From IMG/VR virus record IMGVR_UViG_2821731843_000002: a stretch of DNA of 64,000 bases; one strand, given 5' to 3'. The stretch comes from a virus. Lineage: Duplodnaviria; Caudoviricetes. The position numbers and the translations under genes were made by a program. Of this stretch, positions 4,294-44,225 are shown one piece after another. Under the pieces are notes generated by a model. That model did not search any database. It saw nothing but the letters and a program-made list of their open reading frames with translations, and was not told where the DNA came from. Positions within the stretch are counted from its first letter, which is position 1; each line of letters begins with the position of its first letter.

Positions 4294-5163
4294 TTAACCT
4301 CTTGGTATGTTCTTTTTGCTTTTTTTTGATCGGATTTGTGTCGAAAGGCTCACCCATTTTTTTGTTGGAGGTTTCCATCTACGGTTTCTCAACCAAACAT
4401 ATGCTGCCCAACAAATCGGGATGGCCCCTATTAGGAACGCCCATATAGGTTTCATCTCGCTTGCAATGCCCTTGATCCATTGCCAATCGGTGATGTTAAC
4501 CTGAATTTCGTCTTCAAAAGTCTTCAGGGTAAAAGGTGCTCCGTCATCAACGTGTATAAAAACTGTGAGTAAGAGTATTTCAGCGCCATTCGTTTTGGTC
4601 CCCGTGACCGTCCATTGCCAGACGGTCGGTGAGAGATCAGAAATACGCTGTCGAGCCTCCCCTAATGGTTTGACTGTAAGCCCTGCGGTTCCTTTCAAAA
4701 CAACTGACATTTCTGGCGTGACTTTTGCAAATCCAGTTATTGACTCTCCCGACAAAGCAGGGGGGAGAACCGGAGCAGCCTCAGATGCCAAGTTTAGCTT
4801 TAGTACGACGGTCTCGGGGGCGCCGCGCCACAATTTGGTAATCCTATTGTAGATGAACTGACCATCGGTCAGGCTGGGCAAAACCCTTTTTAAGTTGACC
4901 ACATCCAGACATGCAGCTTCAAACTGAGGCCAGGATTTGTTGTGATCGCAAGGCGCATACCGCAAAGCTTTTCGCGCAGCTTGGCTTGGTAGATCGAACA
5001 CGTTAGGCGAGTTGTGACCCAGAGTACCAGTTGATCCCATAGCACCTCCAAATCCACCAGGTGACTTGAACGCCCCATGTAGGGAAACAAAAGTTGATGC
5101 AAGCCCGAAACCAATAAAAAAGACTGCAAAGAAAACAAGAATCCTGTTGATGTTCCGCCTCAT
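4294..5163 (-). CDS. AT-rich moron, membrane protein (N- and C-terminal hydrophobic segments), unknown function
   Basis: Long ORF between gpF and gpI; hydrophobic ILVFFAVFFIGFGLA and IWAFLIGAIPICWAAYVWL segments. Confidence 0.65.
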   Translation of the reverse strand: MRRNINRILVFFAVFFIGFGLASTFVSLHGAFKSPGGFGGAMGSTGTLGHNSPNVFDLPSQAARKALRYAPCDHNKSWPQFEAACLDVVNLKRVLPSLTDGQFIYNRITKLWRGAPETVVLKLNLASEAAPVLPPALSGESITGFAKVTPEMSVVLKGTAGLTVKPLGEARQRISDLSPTVWQWTVTGTKTNGAEILLLTVFIHVDDGAPFTLKTFEDEIQVNITDWQWIKGIASEMKPIWAFLIGAIPICWAAYVWLRNRRWKPPTKKWVSLSTQIRSKKSKKNIPRG

Positions 5164-22729: not shown

Positions 22730-24439
22730 TTAATCTTCTGAGAGTGGATTAACTTTGAAGCGTCTTTCATCCGGCGAATTCCCTGTTTCGTTTGAGTAAG
22801 TTTTTATGAACTCACGCGTATCTCCGTCGTATGTAATGCTACCATGCAGACAGACGCTTGCAACCTTGGGGCTTTTCACTCTCATTCTCTCAAAATGTCT
22901 TCGTGTCCAATCAAGCACGGCTAGTCTGAGGGGGTTTTCTTGTTTGCCATAATTCTTATGCCGTTGATCATTCAGACCCAGAACGTTGAGGCAGAATCCT
23001 AAGTAGCTAGCGCCTTTGAAGTTGTAGAATTCATCCATTCGGCGAATTTCTTGGTAGATTAACCTTGCTACCCTACGATGTATCCATTTGCTGGTTTTGC
23101 TTTCGTTGAAATGAAAAAGCCGACTCCAAACTGTGTTGTGAGTGACGCTCCAACAAATATCGACGGGCTTTCGCACTTGAGATGCTTTGAAGATCAGATC
23201 AAATATGAGGTCCGCGAGGCGTTCATGGAAGCCGTTATTAAATGTGTCTTCTGGTTTGAGTGAAGACCAGATCTCGACGTCCTTGTCGTCAAGAAGTTTC
23301 ATTAGTGCACGCAAAAAATCCACAAGTACAATGAGTCTGGCGTGTTCGTCACGCTGGTAGTATCGACTGTCATCGTCGTTAAGGTTGTAAAGATCGTGGA
23401 CCATGCTTTTACAGTTTTCCAAGATTTGGTTCACAGCGAAGCTATCCATGCCATCTAAGCCGTGTGGCGACTCTCCCAACAGGCGCTCAATGTATAGGAG
23501 GCTGACGCGCGTATAAGCTTTCCAATTTTCCGCATCCCATTCGTCACGAATATTGTAGCGTGGGTCCAATGGTGAACTGTGTCTATTTGACAGTGACCGG
23601 ATCAGCTTGGGGTTGGCGAAAATTGCGGAGCTGTAGAGCTGGACGTAACCGGACCAACCGGAATCCCAACCACTATCTTCATGGAATATGGGGGAAGTTT
23701 TGCAGCTCAGAAATTCAACGGAGACATTTTGTGCAAATGTATGAAATGAAATTCCCGCCTTATCCTGTGCTGAGACTTCATTAAAAATTGCCTCTGCTGT
23801 GTTTGGTGCAAAGCACGCCATTTCTGCACATACCCTACGATTTGCAAGCAACAACAAAAAATCATGAGCGATTTGTTCGGTTCGGCTCAAATTCCACGGC
23901 GTTCCTTTCTCATTTGGGGGAACCGGTGCAAACTTAATCAAGCTATGTGCCGAGCGTGCTAATTCATGCAGCGCAATCCTTAGCTCTGTGTCACCTTCAT
24001 GGTGAGTCGCTCGTTGGTAGAACCAAAAGAACCGGCGGCTGTTCCAACGTGAAAACTTCGGGGGGCGGATATATGAGACGAATACCCAATAGAGTATTGC
24101 TAATACGCAGGGTGCGAGCAGGAAAGAGTCAATTACAAGGCGGTCGTCCATCACAGGCAACAACGGCCAGCCGTTGTAGAACCACACCTCAGCTAGCAAT
24201 TTCAGTACAAAAACTGCCACGAAGAGCCAGAAGCTAAGTTGATAGACAGGTATTGGAGCGAGTGAGAGTCGCAATTTGTTTCTATAGTCCGATATGGTGT
24301 ATATCACCAAAAGTAACGCAAGCGCAGATAGATAATCTGAAACGCCAAAAAGTGACTCTGAACCAGATGATCCGGCGGCAACCCAGCATACCTCAAACTC
24401 GTAGTATGCGTCCTTTAAAATCTCTTTGCAGGTCTGCAA
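22730..24439 (-). CDS. AT-rich hypothetical protein with ~3 N-terminal TM segments and large soluble domain
   Basis: 569-aa ORF; true start uncertain; no motif recognised. Confidence 0.7.
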   Translation of the reverse strand: MQTCKEILKDAYYEFEVCWVAAGSSGSESLFGVSDYLSALALLLVIYTISDYRNKLRLSLAPIPVYQLSFWLFVAVFVLKLLAEVWFYNGWPLLPVMDDRLVIDSFLLAPCVLAILYWVFVSYIRPPKFSRWNSRRFFWFYQRATHHEGDTELRIALHELARSAHSLIKFAPVPPNEKGTPWNLSRTEQIAHDFLLLLANRRVCAEMACFAPNTAEAIFNEVSAQDKAGISFHTFAQNVSVEFLSCKTSPIFHEDSGWDSGWSGYVQLYSSAIFANPKLIRSLSNRHSSPLDPRYNIRDEWDAENWKAYTRVSLLYIERLLGESPHGLDGMDSFAVNQILENCKSMVHDLYNLNDDDSRYYQRDEHARLIVLVDFLRALMKLLDDKDVEIWSSLKPEDTFNNGFHERLADLIFDLIFKASQVRKPVDICWSVTHNTVWSRLFHFNESKTSKWIHRRVARLIYQEIRRMDEFYNFKGASYLGFCLNVLGLNDQRHKNYGKQENPLRLAVLDWTRRHFERMRVKSPKVASVCLHGSITYDGDTREFIKTYSNETGNSPDERRFKVNPLSED

Positions 24440-24616
24440 TAGCCAACCCCTAATTGCTTACAATGATCATCTGGCACAATAACCTATGTTTCTTCTGCAC
24501 GACATGACATTTGTAGTGTTCCGTTGTTACGGGTCTCGTACTTAAACAATGATGTTGCGCGATGGGCGAATGGCTAGTCTTGTGAAGTTTCACCGCAGCA
24601 TCAGATCGGTCAGCAA

Positions 24617-24707
24617 AAGGTAAGTATGAACCGTCCGCTCGACTTTGCAAAGTGCTCTATCTGCGCATAGCTGTCCTTGGAGCCGATGGCAGCGAATGGC
24701 CGCATAA
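24617..24707. repeat. Cluster of three degenerate ~30-bp palindromes, last one truncated
   Basis: 24617-24646, 24649-24678 (AAAGTGCTCTATCTGCGCATAGCTGTCCTT), 24685-24707 (GATGGCAG...GCATAA, cut off). Confidence 0.6.
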
Positions 24708-24847
24708 TGTTATGGTTCCCCCTAATATCGCTTTCTAGTTCCAGCATTAGAAATGGCGTACTAAATTTCCCTACCGCCATGATTTAAAACAACCTTTCTA
24801 TATCTAGAAAGTCGTCACCGAACAAAAAAGGCGACTTTCTAGTTCCA
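24708..24847 (-). other. Candidate right end (attR) of prophage B with repeated transposase-binding motifs
   Basis: Starts TG; CTTTCTAGTTCCA at 24731-24743 and 24835-24847; inverted CTAGAAAGTCG at 24804-24814; partial CTTTCTA at 24794-24800. Confidence 0.5.
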
Positions 24848-25148
24848 AGGTGCAAAAGTCGCTGTAATTATGAGCGTTTGAAGTATCGGAGAAGGGCACT
24901 AGCCTTATTATTATGGCGCTCTGGGACGCTGGTGGAATTTGCAGAGTTTGGTGTCCCAATATCGGCCTATTGGCGTTTAAAGCCTGTTTTGAGCCTTTTT
25001 GAAAGACACGCGTCCAATCTGCCCTGGTCACGCTCGGTTGCCTCAAACGCCCTTGTTTTTAAGACTCTATCCGGCTTCTTCCGCCATCTTCCGGGCTCTT
25101 CCGGTTACTGCAATAACAAGTGTCCAACAACAAGCGCTGAGACATCTT

Positions 25149-25436
25149 CTAAAAGCCGCTGTTCGTCTCTGGCCGCAAGGGCAATCCATCGGGCACCGGC
25201 ACGTCGTGGGCCACTAACCACTCTCGGATAGCAGTCCAGCGATCCTGGATCATTGGTAGGCACCGATATTCATCCAACCGCCCAACCTCACGCAACAGGG
25301 CAGCTTCCCATTGGAGTTTGAACTCTAGCCGGTGAGACTTAGCCCAGCTTTGGAACGCGGCGCGCCAGGCGTCGTGGTCCGCTGCCTCTAGGGTCTCGTA
25401 CAAGTCATAAGGGATAGTTCGGGGCCAGTCGGGCAT
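25149..25436 (-). CDS. Hypothetical Trp-rich small protein near phage end
   Basis: 95 aa, plausible composition. Confidence 0.55.
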   Translation of the reverse strand: MPDWPRTIPYDLYETLEAADHDAWRAAFQSWAKSHRLEFKLQWEAALLREVGRLDEYRCLPMIQDRWTAIREWLVAHDVPVPDGLPLRPETNSGF

Positions 25437-25653
25437 GTTGTCCTCTCAGGGTTGGATAACAGATGTGTCGCAGTTGGCAGGAACGCAAGGCCCAGAAGAT
25501 TTCGCTTGGGCGCAATTGGTGCCAGGCGTATTGGAACGAGATAGTTGCAATGACCGAGCAGGCGGCGGCGAAAACCGATTAGAAAGCCACCGCGAAGAAG
25601 TTCTTAAACAGTCTTTGAAAGGCCTGTAGGACAGAGTCCGCCTGACTTAAGTG

Positions 25654-26361
25654 TTACCGAGGTCCATCGATCCATAGCCAGCTGAGATTTTCATATTTTA
25701 TCCATTCGCTGTTGAAGTAAGCCACATCGACGACGATGCAGATCAGACCAATGGGCAGAATGATTTCGAAGAGTAAATAACCTACAAATGCTGGATAACC
25801 GATCAAATTGTGAAATAGTTGCCGCGCCAACTTCCAATACATGTATTTGGAATATGAGAGAATTTGCAGCCTCGCCTCTTCCATGACGCGAATAGCTTCA
25901 GACATCCTTTCATCCTGCGACAAAGTGCTGTTCTCATCTTGGAAAATGTCATGAATACTCTCAGACACTTCTACTACTTGATCGTTCGGTTGATAGTAAG
26001 GTTCCTTAAATTTAGCCATCTTGCGTACAGTGAATTTGCAAGCTGGTACTTTCAATATGTTGATGACGTTCGAATTTAGTGACATCACATCAGTCAACTT
26101 GTGAGCGCTTCCGATCCAGTTCTTTTGCCAAGTCATGAAGAAGACATCTGAAATCAGGTTTATTGCGTACCGAACAAACAGCAAAGCAGTTACCCAAAAC
26201 AGGGTTGTGGTGACATACTCTGGCTTGAGCTTGATGTTGACCGCTGTTTCGGCCATTGGGGCCAAATCAATATCAAATATGTATATTGATAAGAATGCTG
26301 TCGCTGATACGAAAAATGATGTTTGGCGTTTCAGAGTCAGCGTACTCAGTGGTTTTTCCAT
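25654..26361 (-). CDS. AT-rich membrane protein (moron)
   Basis: 235 aa, two N-terminal and one or two C-terminal hydrophobic segments; GAGG RBS. Confidence 0.65.
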   Translation of the reverse strand: MEKPLSTLTLKRQTSFFVSATAFLSIYIFDIDLAPMAETAVNIKLKPEYVTTTLFWVTALLFVRYAINLISDVFFMTWQKNWIGSAHKLTDVMSLNSNVINILKVPACKFTVRKMAKFKEPYYQPNDQVVEVSESIHDIFQDENSTLSQDERMSEAIRVMEEARLQILSYSKYMYWKLARQLFHNLIGYPAFVGYLLFEIILPIGLICIVVDVAYFNSEWIKYENLSWLWIDGPR

Positions 26362-26476
26362 CGGTTCCTCAATTTCATATTGGCTAAGTTGACTAGTGGC
26401 CTGCTGGCTTCAGAAAAACACAGAATAGAAAAACTTAATTTGCGCTGAATCTCCAGGCACACTTTAAACGCAAGTG

Positions 26477-26498
26477 GAACGGGGTTTAAACCCCGTTC
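26477..26498. repeat. Perfect 22-bp palindrome GAACGGGGTTTAAACCCCGTTC downstream of formyltransferase
   Basis: Self-complementary; no U-tract on the minus-strand side, so terminator role uncertain. Confidence 0.6.
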
Positions 26499-26542
26499 AA
26501 AAGCTCCTTTTTCAACGCTTCAAACGCACTTGCCCTAGGGCG

Positions 26543-27100
26543 TCACCGTGCCAATGCTTGCACGGCTTCTGCCAATAGATCTGCCCCCATTGGTGCCAGC
26601 GCCCGCCTCCACAGCCCCATCGCCGTTTCACCGGGCAGGATCTGCACTTGGTCCTGGAGCCTTCGCCCGTTGGCAATGACCGCCGGTCCGCCGTCAATTG
26701 CATCCGTCAGCCAGTAGACGGTGCCGCCGGTAAACCGCGCGTCGTCTGCCAGGCAATCGCGGATGGCGTTACGGCCCTTGTAGGCGGGGAGAATAGACGG
26801 GTGGTAGCCGATAGCCCCCAGCCGGGCCCATTCAATGAACCAGCCCGGCACAATGCGGAAGGAGTGGGCAGATATAACCAGATCCGGACGCCAGGGCAGA
26901 TCAGCCGACAACAGGGGCAGGGCGCGCGGCTTGACCGTGCACGGCAGCTCCAGGTCCTTGGCGGCGCGGGCAGCCAGACGGTCCTCAGGCTCAGTTATCA
27001 ACGCTGTTGCAACTCCTTCGGCATCAAGGCGTCGCAGGGTCTCGGCAGCAAGCCAGGAACAGCCAATCACGGCCACGCGGAACTGATTGTTACTCGACAT
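26543..27100 (-). CDS. Formyltransferase-family protein (N-domain only)
   Basis: YHPSILPAYKG, GGTVYW, DAIDGGP; catalytic His and Asp present; no Fmt C-terminal tRNA-binding domain. Confidence 0.85.
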   Translation of the reverse strand: MSSNNQFRVAVIGCSWLAAETLRRLDAEGVATALITEPEDRLAARAAKDLELPCTVKPRALPLLSADLPWRPDLVISAHSFRIVPGWFIEWARLGAIGYHPSILPAYKGRNAIRDCLADDARFTGGTVYWLTDAIDGGPAVIANGRRLQDQVQILPGETAMGLWRRALAPMGADLLAEAVQALAR

Positions 27101-28166
27101 AGCGAAACCCCTGTACTGCTCGGAAATGCCCGCCTAAGCGACCTTTGATGCCGCTGGACTTGGCGGATGATTTTTGGCCGAGATTGGCTGAGGTTTGTGC
27201 CCAAAGCGGTTGCGCCCTGAGCGCCGTGGCAAGGCCGGGATGGGACGTGTGGAACAGGGTGGGCAAGGGGCGTTGATAGCGGTTCACACCGCGCCGCCAC
27301 AAGGCGCACAGCTCATTTAGGAACCGCAGCCCCAGCCCTGCTCCTTGCCATTCGGGCATGATAACAAGGCGGCAGGCGCGGGCCTCAACCAGCCCCGGTC
27401 TAGGGCTGAAACAGATATGCGCCACGGGTTCGTTGTCGACAAAGCCGACGTAGTAATCAGCGGCCACCATGCGGGGCAGCTTCAGGTAGTGATGCGGCTC
27501 AAACAGGGGCCAGTAGGAACCATCGGTTTTGTGAATGTCCATTGTGAGGCGCGGGGGCCGTCGAAGACGCCTCCATTTGAATTCGGCGCTACGGGTATCA
27601 ATGACCCAATCGGGCTGCAGCCATTGCACAACGTCGTCGTGGCAAGTGACGCCGACAAACTGACCTCCGGTGCGCCGCCAGGCCTTGGCAAATGCCGCCG
27701 CGCCAATCCGGGCCACGCGGCGATCAATTGTCGATGTGAACTCGTCCACAACGGCCAGCTTTGGCTTGTCACACAGCAGGCGGGCGAGGTTGGCGCGGAA
27801 CTGTTCGCCGTTGGATAACAGCCCATGCGGGCGCAGCCAGCTCGGGACCGATCCGAGCCCAACGGCGGCCAGGGCAGCCGTGACACTGTCCATTTCAGCG
27901 TCTGGGGCAATGGCCTCTATAATGGCCTGGTCTATGGGCCACTTTGGGTCGCGGGTGATAGCCTTGCCAAAGAGCGCGCGCCCGAGTGAGGTTTTTCCGG
28001 TACCAGACGGCCCAACAATGAGGCCGACGCCCCAAGGCTGTGCGTTTAAATCGGCTTCAACGGTCAATTTAAAGTCGGCGTCGCCTTCGACATTGAACAT
28101 GCTGGAGACCCGCGCGGCACGGTAGGTTTCAGGAATGGGCGATTTGTGGTGGATCTCGACCTTCAT
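27090..28166 (-). CDS. ABC-type ATPase fused to GNAT-fold transferase
   Basis: Walker A GPSGTGKT, LSNGE signature, VVDEF Walker B, H-loop TCH; then PHHYL and RLVIMPEWQGAGLG acyl-CoA motif. Confidence 0.85.
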   Translation of the reverse strand: MKVEIHHKSPIPETYRAARVSSMFNVEGDADFKLTVEADLNAQPWGVGLIVGPSGTGKTSLGRALFGKAITRDPKWPIDQAIIEAIAPDAEMDSVTAALAAVGLGSVPSWLRPHGLLSNGEQFRANLARLLCDKPKLAVVDEFTSTIDRRVARIGAAAFAKAWRRTGGQFVGVTCHDDVVQWLQPDWVIDTRSAEFKWRRLRRPPRLTMDIHKTDGSYWPLFEPHHYLKLPRMVAADYYVGFVDNEPVAHICFSPRPGLVEARACRLVIMPEWQGAGLGLRFLNELCALWRRGVNRYQRPLPTLFHTSHPGLATALRAQPLWAQTSANLGQKSSAKSSGIKGRLGGHFRAVQGFRYVE

Positions 28167-28345
28167 GTGTTCACCACCTTGCAGCGGTGCCCGTGGCCGG
28201 TCAGCTGTTCAAATAGGGATTTCTGCGCCGGTTCGTCCTGGACCAGGACAATGACGCCGAACTGCTGTTTATAGCGGTTCCCCTTGGGTATTCCGTGGGT
28301 TCCCGGCGGTAGCGGGGGCAGGTTGATTTCTTCGGATTTGGCCAC
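28163..28345 (-). CDS. 60-aa protein starting (GTG) inside com
   Basis: AAGGAAGG RBS 5 nt before GTG 28345 (alternative ATG 28363); stop coupled to ABC-GNAT start. Confidence 0.6.
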   Translation of the reverse strand: MAKSEEINLPPLPPGTHGIPKGNRYKQQFGVIVLVQDEPAQKSLFEQLTGHGHRCKVVNT

Positions 28346-28517
28346 TGGAGCCTTCCTTTCCATCGCGCTCCTGGCGCTTGGATAAAGGGCTCTGTTGTGG
28401 CCTCAAATGATTGTGTGCCTTGCATCTTGGGCACTTGATGTTGAGCGCGCCGTTTAGGGCATCACTCTCTATTTTAAATAGCAGTCGGGCACATTGGCCG
28501 CAACGCTGGTCTTGCAT
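28269..28517 (-). CDS. com: Com-like zinc-finger translational regulator
   Basis: RCGQCARLL...IKCPRCKAHN Cys4 finger; located after tail fibre as in Mu. Confidence 0.8.
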   Translation of the reverse strand: MQDQRCGQCARLLFKIESDALNGALNIKCPRCKAHNHLRPQQSPLSKRQERDGKEGSSGQIRRNQPAPATAGNPRNTQGEPL

Positions 28518-28665
28518 GGACAAGTGGAATCACCTCAGAAAGGCCACACCCTCGCGAGGGGTGGGAGCGGCCATGAGGAAATGCTGGTCGGCGGGGTTTA
28601 GTGTGAATATTAGTCCCCGTGTTAAGGAGTGTTACAGCACCCCTTAGCCTCCCTGTAAGGAGGCG

Positions 28666-30288
28666 TTACGACGCCGCCATCAGGAAGCACATCAGCTCGG
28701 CGTAGCGCAGGCCCAGGCGATCTCCGTTGGGCTCCTCGACCGCGTATTCCTCGGCGACGATCTCCATGACCGGAATGCGGTGTGTGCCGATTTTGGTGCC
28801 GTCTTCGTCAACCAGTGGAATGTCAGCCATGACACCCTGTTTGACTGTTTTGGACACCAGCGTTTGAACTGCGACCCCGTCCACAACTTCAACTTCCATG
28901 ACGTCAGATGTGATCGTCTCAGTCACTTGCCGCTCAACTTCGCGGGTCTTGGTGACGGTCTTGGTAACAGGTGTGCGGGTGAACAGGCTGTAGCGGCCTA
29001 CGTCCAGCCCCTCGGCGTCAAATGCTGCTTCGACGTCCTGGGCGATAAAGCCGCAGTGCAGCCGGGCGGCGTTCTCGCCCTTGGCCTCGACCGCATCAAT
29101 CCACTGATAGATACGAGTGCCTGCCATGAGCGAAGCAGCCACCCGTTTTTCCGCATCGTTCAACACCCGAATACCGTGTTTCAGGCGCTCATCAGAGGAC
29201 TGAATTGCCGTGTTGGTGGCATAGAAATCATCCCAGCGGAAGGACGCCGTGCCCAGGCTTTGAGCGTCATCTGTACCGGGGTGAATATGACCGTCGTACC
29301 TGATCCGCAGCCTTTCCACCGGGTCAGCGGCAGAGGACGTAAAGAACGACATTCCGACCTGTGTAGACCCATCCTGAACAGATCGAATAGAGGCATCCCG
29401 CGACCCGACACCGTTGCGGCTGGGATCAAGTGAAAGCTGCACAACGCCGTCGCTGGAGTGCCTGCGCAGTGCCAAATGCGCGGCACTGTCGCTCTTAACG
29501 GTGACGGCTGAACCAGCAATTGGCGCAACGCCGACGCCCAGCCCATCGGAGGTCAACTTTAGACCCTCGACCCCTTCTACCCGCCAACTATGGCTGGTCG
29601 CACCAAGAGCCCCCAGTCTCATCTCATAATCGATTGAGACACTCGCTCCGGCATCATCCCGTGTGGCCATTCGGAACACATCGGTCCAACGAAGAAAGCG
29701 AGTGCGTTGGTGGCTCGCCGGGTCGTCACTATTGCTGAGGTCCATAACGGGTGAAGGACCAACCACGTTGACAGCAGAAAACGACGCTACAGCCGGTGTC
29801 GCTTGCCCAATCGGGGTATCTTCCAATGCAAGCATTTCTGCCCGGTCAGTGAACAGCTTGATGATATCCGTGCCACCGGCGACCAAGGCCCAGTTGTTGT
29901 CGCCGATGCGGCGCGCGCCGCTGTCCAGGTCCGCAAGGAACCGCCAGCCTGGTGCGCCCAAAGTGCCATCTGGGAACTTACCCTGGCCCGCGCCGTCGTA
30001 GATCGACTGGTAATTGGTGATCAGCGATTGGACCGACGCCACCAGGGCAATGTCCAGGCTGTTGGTGGGAAAGATCGCATAGGCCTGCGGCGAGGCTGTT
30101 GCCCCCTGATAAGCAGTGCCCAGTGTGAGGGAGGCGGCATCCGTAATGCTCTCGATTTCATAGAGCCGGCCATCGGGGCCGACAAAACCCCAGCCGTTTT
30201 GCAATGCACCAAACCAGCCGGTGCCGGTCCCGGTGACAAGGGTTGCGCCGTTGGTGACGCTGACAGTGCCGGTGCTGTACCATGACAT
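28666..30288 (-). CDS. Tail fibre/spike with C-terminal S74 intramolecular chaperone
   Basis: WYSTGTVSVTNG N-terminus; SDERLK, HCGFIAQDV, LRYAELMCF chaperone motifs. Confidence 0.85.
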   Translation of the reverse strand: MSWYSTGTVSVTNGATLVTGTGTGWFGALQNGWGFVGPDGRLYEIESITDAASLTLGTAYQGATASPQAYAIFPTNSLDIALVASVQSLITNYQSIYDGAGQGKFPDGTLGAPGWRFLADLDSGARRIGDNNWALVAGGTDIIKLFTDRAEMLALEDTPIGQATPAVASFSAVNVVGPSPVMDLSNSDDPASHQRTRFLRWTDVFRMATRDDAGASVSIDYEMRLGALGATSHSWRVEGVEGLKLTSDGLGVGVAPIAGSAVTVKSDSAAHLALRRHSSDGVVQLSLDPSRNGVGSRDASIRSVQDGSTQVGMSFFTSSAADPVERLRIRYDGHIHPGTDDAQSLGTASFRWDDFYATNTAIQSSDERLKHGIRVLNDAEKRVAASLMAGTRIYQWIDAVEAKGENAARLHCGFIAQDVEAAFDAEGLDVGRYSLFTRTPVTKTVTKTREVERQVTETITSDVMEVEVVDGVAVQTLVSKTVKQGVMADIPLVDEDGTKIGTHRIPVMEIVAEEYAVEEPNGDRLGLRYAELMCFLMAAS

Positions 30289-44201: not shown

Positions 44202-44225
44202 ACACCCGCAACAGCTTGCGGGTGT
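44202..44225 (-). promoter_or_regulatory. Late-promoter dyad ACACCCGCAA-CAGC-TTGCGGGTGT upstream of gpI
   Basis: Perfect 10-bp arms; related copy at 53322-53345; -10-like GAATAT at 44181-44176. Confidence 0.75.

Follow-up and report, generated by a model that had tools for sequence, protein, structure and literature searches.

Which substrate is served by a set of genes that occupies, in a Mu-like prophage, the Com-controlled slot held in phage Mu by mom? The question is raised by a Caudoviricetes record of IMG/VR, IMGVR_UViG_2821731843_000002, of which a stretch of 64,000 nucleotides (nt) was analyzed (hereafter, the window; all positions refer to it unless stated otherwise). On its minus strand, directly after the gene for a tail fiber protein of 540 amino acids (aa), lie four genes, namely, com, a small open reading frame (ORF) that starts inside com, a gene for an ABC-ATPase fused to a GNAT acyltransferase, and a gene for a stand-alone formyltransferase. 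On balance, we lean toward the interpretation that these genes constitute an operon for DNA modification that a Mu-like siphovirus prophage expresses late and under Com control, in which case the operon would belong to the cassettes that combine a ParB or ParB-tail protein, an ABC-ATPase::GNAT fusion and a formyltransferase, and would act by the mechanism proposed below. The set of four genes following the tail fiber, which an earlier note on this DNA had already delineated, is recovered at the same positions, with matches to both Pfam and PHROGs backing each assignment.

The Com switch and its interchangeable cargo

The first gene, com (28269-28517, minus strand), encodes a Cys4 zinc-ribbon translational activator that matches PF10122 (E 3e-12; 46.1 bits, above the Pfam gathering cut-off of 22.9) and phrog_6417 (E 3e-14) and shares 46% identity with Mu Com over the CxxC...CxxC finger. 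Translation probably begins at the ATG at 28517, which yields a protein of 82 aa; the ORF list has a TTG at 28523. The significance of this gene becomes apparent from comparison within the same genome, that of a member of the Rhodobacteraceae, which carries two sister Mu-like prophages that share the Com switch and differ in what the switch controls, one having the cassette and the other a Dam methylase, and which thereby provides a built-in control. In the sister prophage, com (62 aa) followed by dam occupies approximately positions 1679497-1680485 of the genome (C1). The two Com proteins are 93% identical over the first 57 residues of the window Com, and the DNA of the two prophages is about 97% identical from upstream of com up to the ATGGAAA at which the cargo starts, and unrelated beyond that point. 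As cargo, the sister prophage carries an adenine methylase of the Dam family (TIGR00571, E 5e-28), and replacement of mom by adenine methylases has been described in other Mu-like prophages (PMC3299994). This exact exchange is the best local argument for a cargo that acts on DNA. The claim of the earlier note that the cassette sits in a com-controlled mom slot is thus borne out, both by the presence of Dam at precisely this place in the sister prophage and by a Com-motif hairpin ahead of the first cargo AUG.

This hairpin, GCGC-CAGGA-GCGC (28365-28377, minus strand), precedes the start codon of the small ORF at a distance of one base. Its loop region holds CC-AG-GAG, in which GGAG also serves as the Shine-Dalgarno sequence, and fits the SELEX-derived Com motif (SELEX, systematic evolution of ligands by exponential enrichment), CC(N)2-3GAG in a short hairpin that adjoins the translation-inhibition structure (PMC6483171). 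At the equivalent position, Mu has AUGC-CUGCGA-GCAU. Across the Com-bearing loci, 30 hairpins of the Com type were found, distributed over 21 of the 28 loci, compared with 5.8 +/- 2.4 in dinucleotide shuffles, a contrast that is inflated by the kinship of the loci; the stems vary in sequence from locus to locus yet stay complementary. Folding of the RNA of 28320-28440 (121 nt) gave a minimum free energy of -39.1 kcal/mol (z -3.65), with none of 200 shuffles as stable, and the predicted translation-inhibition stem-loop (28340-28402, minus strand) encloses the small-ORF start codon together with its Shine-Dalgarno sequence. The inner stem of this structure, GAGCC/GGCUC, is kept in the sister prophage. 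When RNA was folded locus by locus around the assumed starts of the small ORFs, the signal was noisy (mean z -1.1), starts taken from the longest ORF being unreliable, and the motif-based count of hairpins is the more informative measure. Altogether, control of the cassette by Com is well supported at the sequence level, with the hairpin as the putative operator.

The genes downstream of com appear to be tied to it by translational coupling, as the earlier note had proposed. The small ORF (28163-28363) starts 92 nt ahead of the com stop codon, its junction with the fusion gene is a 4-nt ATGA overlap (28163-28166), and the fusion and formyltransferase genes overlap by 11 nt (27090-27100). The small ORF does begin inside com, as that note had it, and encodes 66 aa instead of the 60 given there. 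In the sister prophage, the shared AUG opens a five-codon mini-ORF, MEKAL followed by TAA, with an in-frame GTG of dam one base further on, an arrangement that suggests coupling of Dam to the Com switch by termination-reinitiation through the mini-ORF.

The fusion enzyme and its putative ParB-tail partner

The core of the cassette is a fusion protein (27090-28166, minus strand; 358 aa) that consists of an ABC-type ATPase domain (27582-28166, residues 1 to about 195; PF00005) and a GNAT acyl-CoA (CoA, coenzyme A) N-acyltransferase domain (27090-27575, residues from about 198 to 358 including the stop; PF00583/PF13508). The reading of this gene as an ABC ATPase joined to a GNAT domain, first made by eye, is confirmed by these two Pfam matches and by the full-length match to phrog_11143 (E 6.5e-132), in which residues 1-357 align with profile positions 1-349 of 357. 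Identity to gp29 of Burkholderia phage phiE255 is 58%. The complete set of ABC-ATPase motifs is invariant among 23 diverse homologues, including the Walker A motif (G52-K58), the signature motif LSNGE (L117-E121), the Walker B motif (D141-E142) and the H-loop (H176), as is motif A of the GNAT domain (QGAGxG, Q274-G279). No permease partner is present, the genes beside the fusion being only the small ORF and the formyltransferase. In AlphaFold models, the confidence (predicted local distance difference test) was 78 for the whole fusion and 85 for the GNAT domain alone. The ABC model retrieved, with Foldseek, nucleotide-binding domains of ABC transporters (E about 1e-8), and the GNAT model retrieved GCN5/RimI (E 5e-6), with VIA Z scores of 12-14 to CoA-bound GNATs; at the sequence level, a profile of the GNAT domain yielded no significant match among PDB sequences.

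The fusion belongs to a very widespread family, with thousands of members spread over more than 10 phyla. At least 4740 relatives were found among the candidates scored in a word-indexed search, and a genome scan yielded 80 loci with 49-87% identity from at least 8 phyla, namely, Proteobacteria, Bacteroidota, Planctomycetota, Verrucomicrobiota, Acidobacteriota, Chloroflexota, Spirochaetota and Bacillota. In these 80 loci, a formyltransferase gene lies downstream of the fusion in about 59, and Com is present in 30. The same trio follows the tail genes in the Mu-like phages Burkholderia phiE255 and Pseudomonas Komp_PAO1_1, and in Gordonia phages of the 'Sourvirus' group the cassette comprises genes 1-3, beside the terminase. 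Further copies were found in Porphyromonas prophages, in phages of Streptococcus, Lactococcus, Oenococcus, Leptospira and Pasteurella, and in jumbo phages, and the ParB/ABC-GNAT pair of other phages adjoins either the terminase or DNA methylases. In Streptococcus phage 315.4, the ABC and GNAT parts are encoded as two separate pieces, and a gene for an ASCH-domain protein (4616-4993 of that phage) follows the ParB, ABC and GNAT genes; the ASCH family includes the N4-acylcytosine amidohydrolase YqfB.

By sequence, the cassette of the window thus belongs to a phage system already known from computational prediction. That an ABC-ATPase and a GNAT of phages together acylate a DNA base is a prediction of Iyer, Zhang, Burroughs and Aravind (NAR 2013) that is restated in PMC7824862, where Tenacibaculum phage pT24 is named for such a predicted system; the pT24 homologue is 31% identical to the window fusion over 88% of the query. 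Hence, the qualifier 'novel' in the earlier note has to be given up, given that the prediction dates from 2013 and that the proteins form a large PHROG family.

The small ORF matches phrog_28816 (E 8e-8). It is directly 5' of the fusion, as a module, in 79 of the 80 related loci, and in 17 of these 79 the module is the C-terminus of a larger protein, of about 190-240 aa, with a ParB N-domain. The 66-aa protein itself is a beta-alpha-beta module with a 40-residue core, YKxQFGVIVxxxDExxQ...KVVxV. A profile of the free-standing modules matches the last 40 residues (162-201) of gp1, a ParB-like protein of Gordonia phage Axumite, with an hhalign probability of 98.3% (E 2e-14). Because the core is the C-terminus of ParB proteins in the 17 loci and is matched by Axumite gp1, the 66-aa protein is, as judged from these alignments, a detached tail, namely, the C-terminal 40 residues of the ParB-like proteins encoded ahead of the fusion in other phages. 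Most simply, this tail would be the piece that links ParB-like partners to the ABC-GNAT enzyme. A precedent for such a partnership is a phage thymine dioxygenase that needs a ParB-like activator for DNA modification on double-stranded DNA (PMC13229309).

Proposed acyl donor, chemical mark and target

If the GNAT domain transfers an acyl group, the donor of that group becomes the central issue, and the formyltransferase (26543-27100, minus strand; 185 aa; PF00551, E 6e-16; phrog_9240, E 4e-35) offers a clue. It consists of the catalytic N-domain only, with His100 and Asp136 in place and Tyr99 at the position of the canonical Asn; among 62 cassette formyltransferases, this position is Y in 51, F in 10 and L in 1. 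A profile built from 25 cassette formyltransferases and compared with solved structures in the PDB matched best the N-terminal domain of 10-formyltetrahydrofolate (10-formyl-THF) dehydrogenase, over the full length of the domain (residues 1-206; E 1e-48, 168 bits), followed by Met-tRNA formyltransferase (E 1e-29, 106 bits), ArnA (E 2e-23, 86 bits) and PurN (E 6e-18, 68 bits). The likeness to the dehydrogenase that the earlier note had seen in the YHPS motif is therefore right and extends far beyond one motif; equally correct was its remark that a tRNA-binding domain is missing, the 185-aa protein having no such C-terminal domain, with alignments that end at about residues 185-212 of the 314-322-aa Met-tRNA formyltransferases. 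The dehydrogenase N-domain hands the formyl group from 10-formyl-THF to a 4'-phosphopantetheine arm (PMC8748788). The reactive end of CoA is chemically the same group.

A second clue comes from a variant of the cassette. Downstream of its ParB and ABC-GNAT genes, Rhodococcus phage Jace carries one gene for an aspartate decarboxylase (PF02261, E 2e-33) and another for a protein that resembles family-III CoA-transferases (PF02515, E 2e-8). Among 42 related viral contigs, the CoA-transferase-like gene directly follows the fusion in 20, and in 16 the aspartate decarboxylase gene is there as well. Our literature search returned no description of this combination of ParB, ABC-GNAT, aspartate decarboxylase and CoA-transferase-like protein (L006:4610-5721; IMG/VR contigs L094-L117). 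Given that alternative CoA-centered modules follow the GNAT, the partner genes probably supply its acyl-CoA donor, which in the window would be formyl-CoA, and the arrangement of Jace suggests that the partners there supply beta-alanyl-CoA.

From these elements, a mechanism can be proposed. By the Mu com/mom paradigm, Com would bind the CC-N2-GAG hairpin 5' of the small-ORF AUG and open the inhibitory stem-loop, and the three translationally coupled genes would thus be made only late in infection. The 66-aa ParB tail would serve the ABC-GNAT enzyme as its obligatory partner or as its activator, and in other phages a ParB-like protein with the same module would bring the enzyme to DNA. The ABC domain, by analogy with the helicase module of TmcA, would act as an ATP-dependent dimer whose cycle engages duplex DNA or exposes a base, and the GNAT domain would move a short acyl group from acyl-CoA to the exocyclic amine of a DNA base. 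In what is the least certain step, the formyltransferase would move the formyl group from 10-formyl-THF to the phosphopantetheine thiol of CoA, producing formyl-CoA, such that the mark would be N-formyl. The modified virion DNA would evade host restriction, as it does for Mu through Mom, which is also the role to be expected of Dam in the same slot of the sister prophage.

The most specific version of this scheme is one that we advance tentatively and with more doubt than confidence, namely, that the cassette writes a DNA mark new to biology, N-formyl on an exocyclic base amine, whereby the formyltransferase charges CoA from 10-formyl-THF, the ParB-tail-activated, ATP-driven ABC::GNAT enzyme transfers the group to duplex DNA, and sister cassettes with an aspartate decarboxylase and a CoA-transferase write beta-alanyl. 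The same genes could be read in a different order, with DNA still as the target: the formyltransferase would act after or beside the GNAT and N-formylate an amine on the appended acyl group or on the base, as opposed to making the donor. Indeed, most characterized PF00551 enzymes formylate amines, the catalytic His and Asp are conserved, and the phage enzyme DpdN has been linked to a formylated DNA base, formyl-dPreQ1 (PMC10516641). This order of events nevertheless seems unlikely, considering that no gene of the cassette would supply an amine-bearing acyl donor, that the family is closer to the phosphopantetheine-directed dehydrogenase domain (168 bits) than to amine formyltransferases (at most 106), and that the alternative partner in the sister subfamily, the CoA-transferase, is an enzyme of the donor side.

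As for the target itself, DNA is favored by the ParB N-domain fusions, by the terminase and methylase neighborhoods, and by the exchange with Dam. The competing proposal that comes closest has the translation apparatus, or some other RNA or protein, as the target of the cassette, for instance, through ATP-dependent N-acylation of a tRNA, an rRNA or a ribosomal protein, coupled with formyl-transfer chemistry, in the service of host takeover or anti-defense. Several observations would fit: soluble ABC nucleotide-binding domains include the ribosome-binding ABC-F proteins (NCBIfam matches), the structural neighbors of the GNAT include RimI and Naa50, the tRNA enzyme TmcA has an ATPase and GNAT layout, the formyltransferase is related to Met-tRNA formyltransferase, and the ASCH gene near the Streptococcus phage copies belongs to the family with the N4-acylcytosine amidohydrolase. 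We consider this proposal improbable all the same, because the three lines of evidence just named favor DNA, the formyltransferase is devoid of the tRNA-binding C-domain, no helicase or GNAT family of the TmcA type was matched, and the single tRNA gene of the window sits in the other, Dam-carrying prophage. A link of the cassette to this gene, tRNA-Met(CAU) at 2022-2096, was rejected for the window on the ground of that location. Least probable of all is an anti-defense set that acylates a host defense protein or a small-molecule or nucleotide signal, with the ParB tail as a mere regulatory subunit, an option that the earlier note had raised second: the small ORF is labeled 'acr candidate' in Porphyromonas phage records, GNATs have very many substrates and the cassette lies at the accessory end of the prophage, but that label was guessed automatically, conservation this extreme (about 50% identity or more across phyla) better suits a universal substrate such as DNA, and the ParB linkage likewise favors DNA.

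Several points weigh against the preferred reading, that of a Com-gated, acyl-CoA-dependent modification of DNA. The ends of Mu-like prophages may carry morons of any kind. The ABC domain resembles nucleotide-binding domains of the transporter type and not the SMC, Rad50 and UvrA types that handle DNA, and the structures nearest to the GNAT domain are generic, including the protein N-alpha-acetyltransferases RimI and Naa50. The GNAT profile aligned with Mu Mom at an hhalign probability of only 0.2%, and no Mom family is among the Pfam and PHROG matches; sequence-level kinship with Mom was accordingly rejected, and the motif PHHYL, described earlier as reminiscent of Mom, is part of FEPHHYL, simply an invariant motif of the fusion family. 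We know of no GNAT that uses formyl-CoA. The phosphopantetheine argument amounts to homology with one domain of a eukaryotic multidomain enzyme, and the CoA-transferase-like protein of Jace is short, its first 92 residues alone matching PF02515. About a quarter of the loci lack a formyltransferase, which implies that this enzyme is dispensable for the core reaction. In those loci, no substitute tailoring enzyme was found, only the terminase or host genes being located downstream, and since no partner gene is present, the core enzyme presumably uses a host acyl-CoA; such cassettes would draw, for example, on acetyl-CoA. Finally, a full-text literature search returned no experimental characterization and no modified base for any phage with the cassette, which is not proof of absence, and this outcome agrees with the earlier note, which knew of no characterization of the chemistry.

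Taken together with its spread, this places the fusion family among the most widespread phage enzyme sets that lack experimental work in the literature found. Should the mark be an N-acyl or N-formyl base, natural DNA modifications would gain a new class, both ABC ATPases and GNATs would be seen in a new use, and a new enzymatic tool might result. If the scheme of exchangeable donor modules is true, the family would be a programmable writer that carries acyl groups from CoA to DNA, and the donor-supply reading lends itself to simple in vitro assays.

Operon surroundings and known systems

The tail fiber gene that precedes com (28666-30288, minus strand) encodes a protein with a Peptidase_S74 chaperone domain. 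The G+C content of the cassette (56-64%) resembles that of the phage tail genes (57-60%), and most of the island further downstream is at 42-47%. This low-G+C stretch, between the two prophages of the window (22730-26361), may be cargo or an island, and no Pfam family was detected for its ORFs of 569 aa (22730-24439, minus strand) and 235 aa (25654-26361, minus strand). About 45 nt past the formyltransferase stop is a perfect hairpin, AACGGGG-TTTAAA-CCCCGTT (26478-26497), probably the terminator of the operon, and a sequence ...GATTCA / GCGC near 26450 may mark the right end of the prophage. Comparison of the right ends of the two prophages downstream of their cargo genes revealed no similarity.

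A perfect 10-nt dyad, ACACCCGCAA-N4-TTGCGGGTGT (44202-44225), lies ahead of the protease/scaffold gene of this prophage and appears to be a late-promoter dyad. A search for this dyad upstream of com that tolerated up to 3 mismatches gave no copy, and transcription of the com operon may therefore differ from that of the remaining late operons of the prophage. A search of 26300-28800 for sigma-70-like promoters found none, and read-through from the tail operon is a possible source of the transcript. In a search of sequencing runs, the matches listed were two sediment metagenomes alone, each with a small share of the words, and no RNA run was listed.

How, then, does the cassette compare with what is known? 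With Mu Com and Mom, it has in common the position as the last operon after the tail fiber genes, a homologous Com, a hairpin before the start codon, a first cargo gene that starts inside com (by 92 nt here and by 80 nt for mom) and an effector of the GNAT fold. Mu relies on one enzyme, Mom, which uses glycyl-tRNA (PMC13219725), whereas in the window an adaptor protein and a formyltransferase accompany an ABC ATPase, the CoA-binding motif is intact, and the GNAT has no detectable sequence relation to Mom. For the formyltransferase, the best solved relative is the N-domain of ALDH1L1 (PDB 4qpd, 1s3i and 7rlt), with which the cassette enzymes have the sequence YHPSLLPRHRG in common, as well as the catalytic His and Asp; unlike ALDH1L1, the phage protein is without the second subdomain, the carrier domain and the aldehyde dehydrogenase domain, and its acceptor would be free CoA.

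TmcA and NAT10 provide a parallel for the fusion, in that a nucleoside triphosphatase module is fused to a GNAT domain and a nucleobase amine is acylated at the expense of acyl-CoA. Their module is, however, a RecD-like helicase and their substrate RNA, in contrast to the ABC domain of the window fusion, and the Pfam families of TmcA/NAT10 gave no match to the window proteins at E values up to 1. The ParB-dependent thymine dioxygenases (PMC13229309) resemble the cassette in having a phage ParB-like gene beside a post-replicative DNA-modifying enzyme; those enzymes are of the Fe/2-oxoglutarate class, and of the ParB protein the window retains just the 40-residue tail. The closest counterpart by far is the ABC-ATPase and GNAT system of Iyer and Aravind (PHROG 11143), which comprises the same protein family and for which the same uncharacterized acylation of a DNA base is predicted. 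Nothing fundamental differs between that system and the operon described here, and the window copy stands out by its minimal ParB tail, its formyltransferase and its control by Com.

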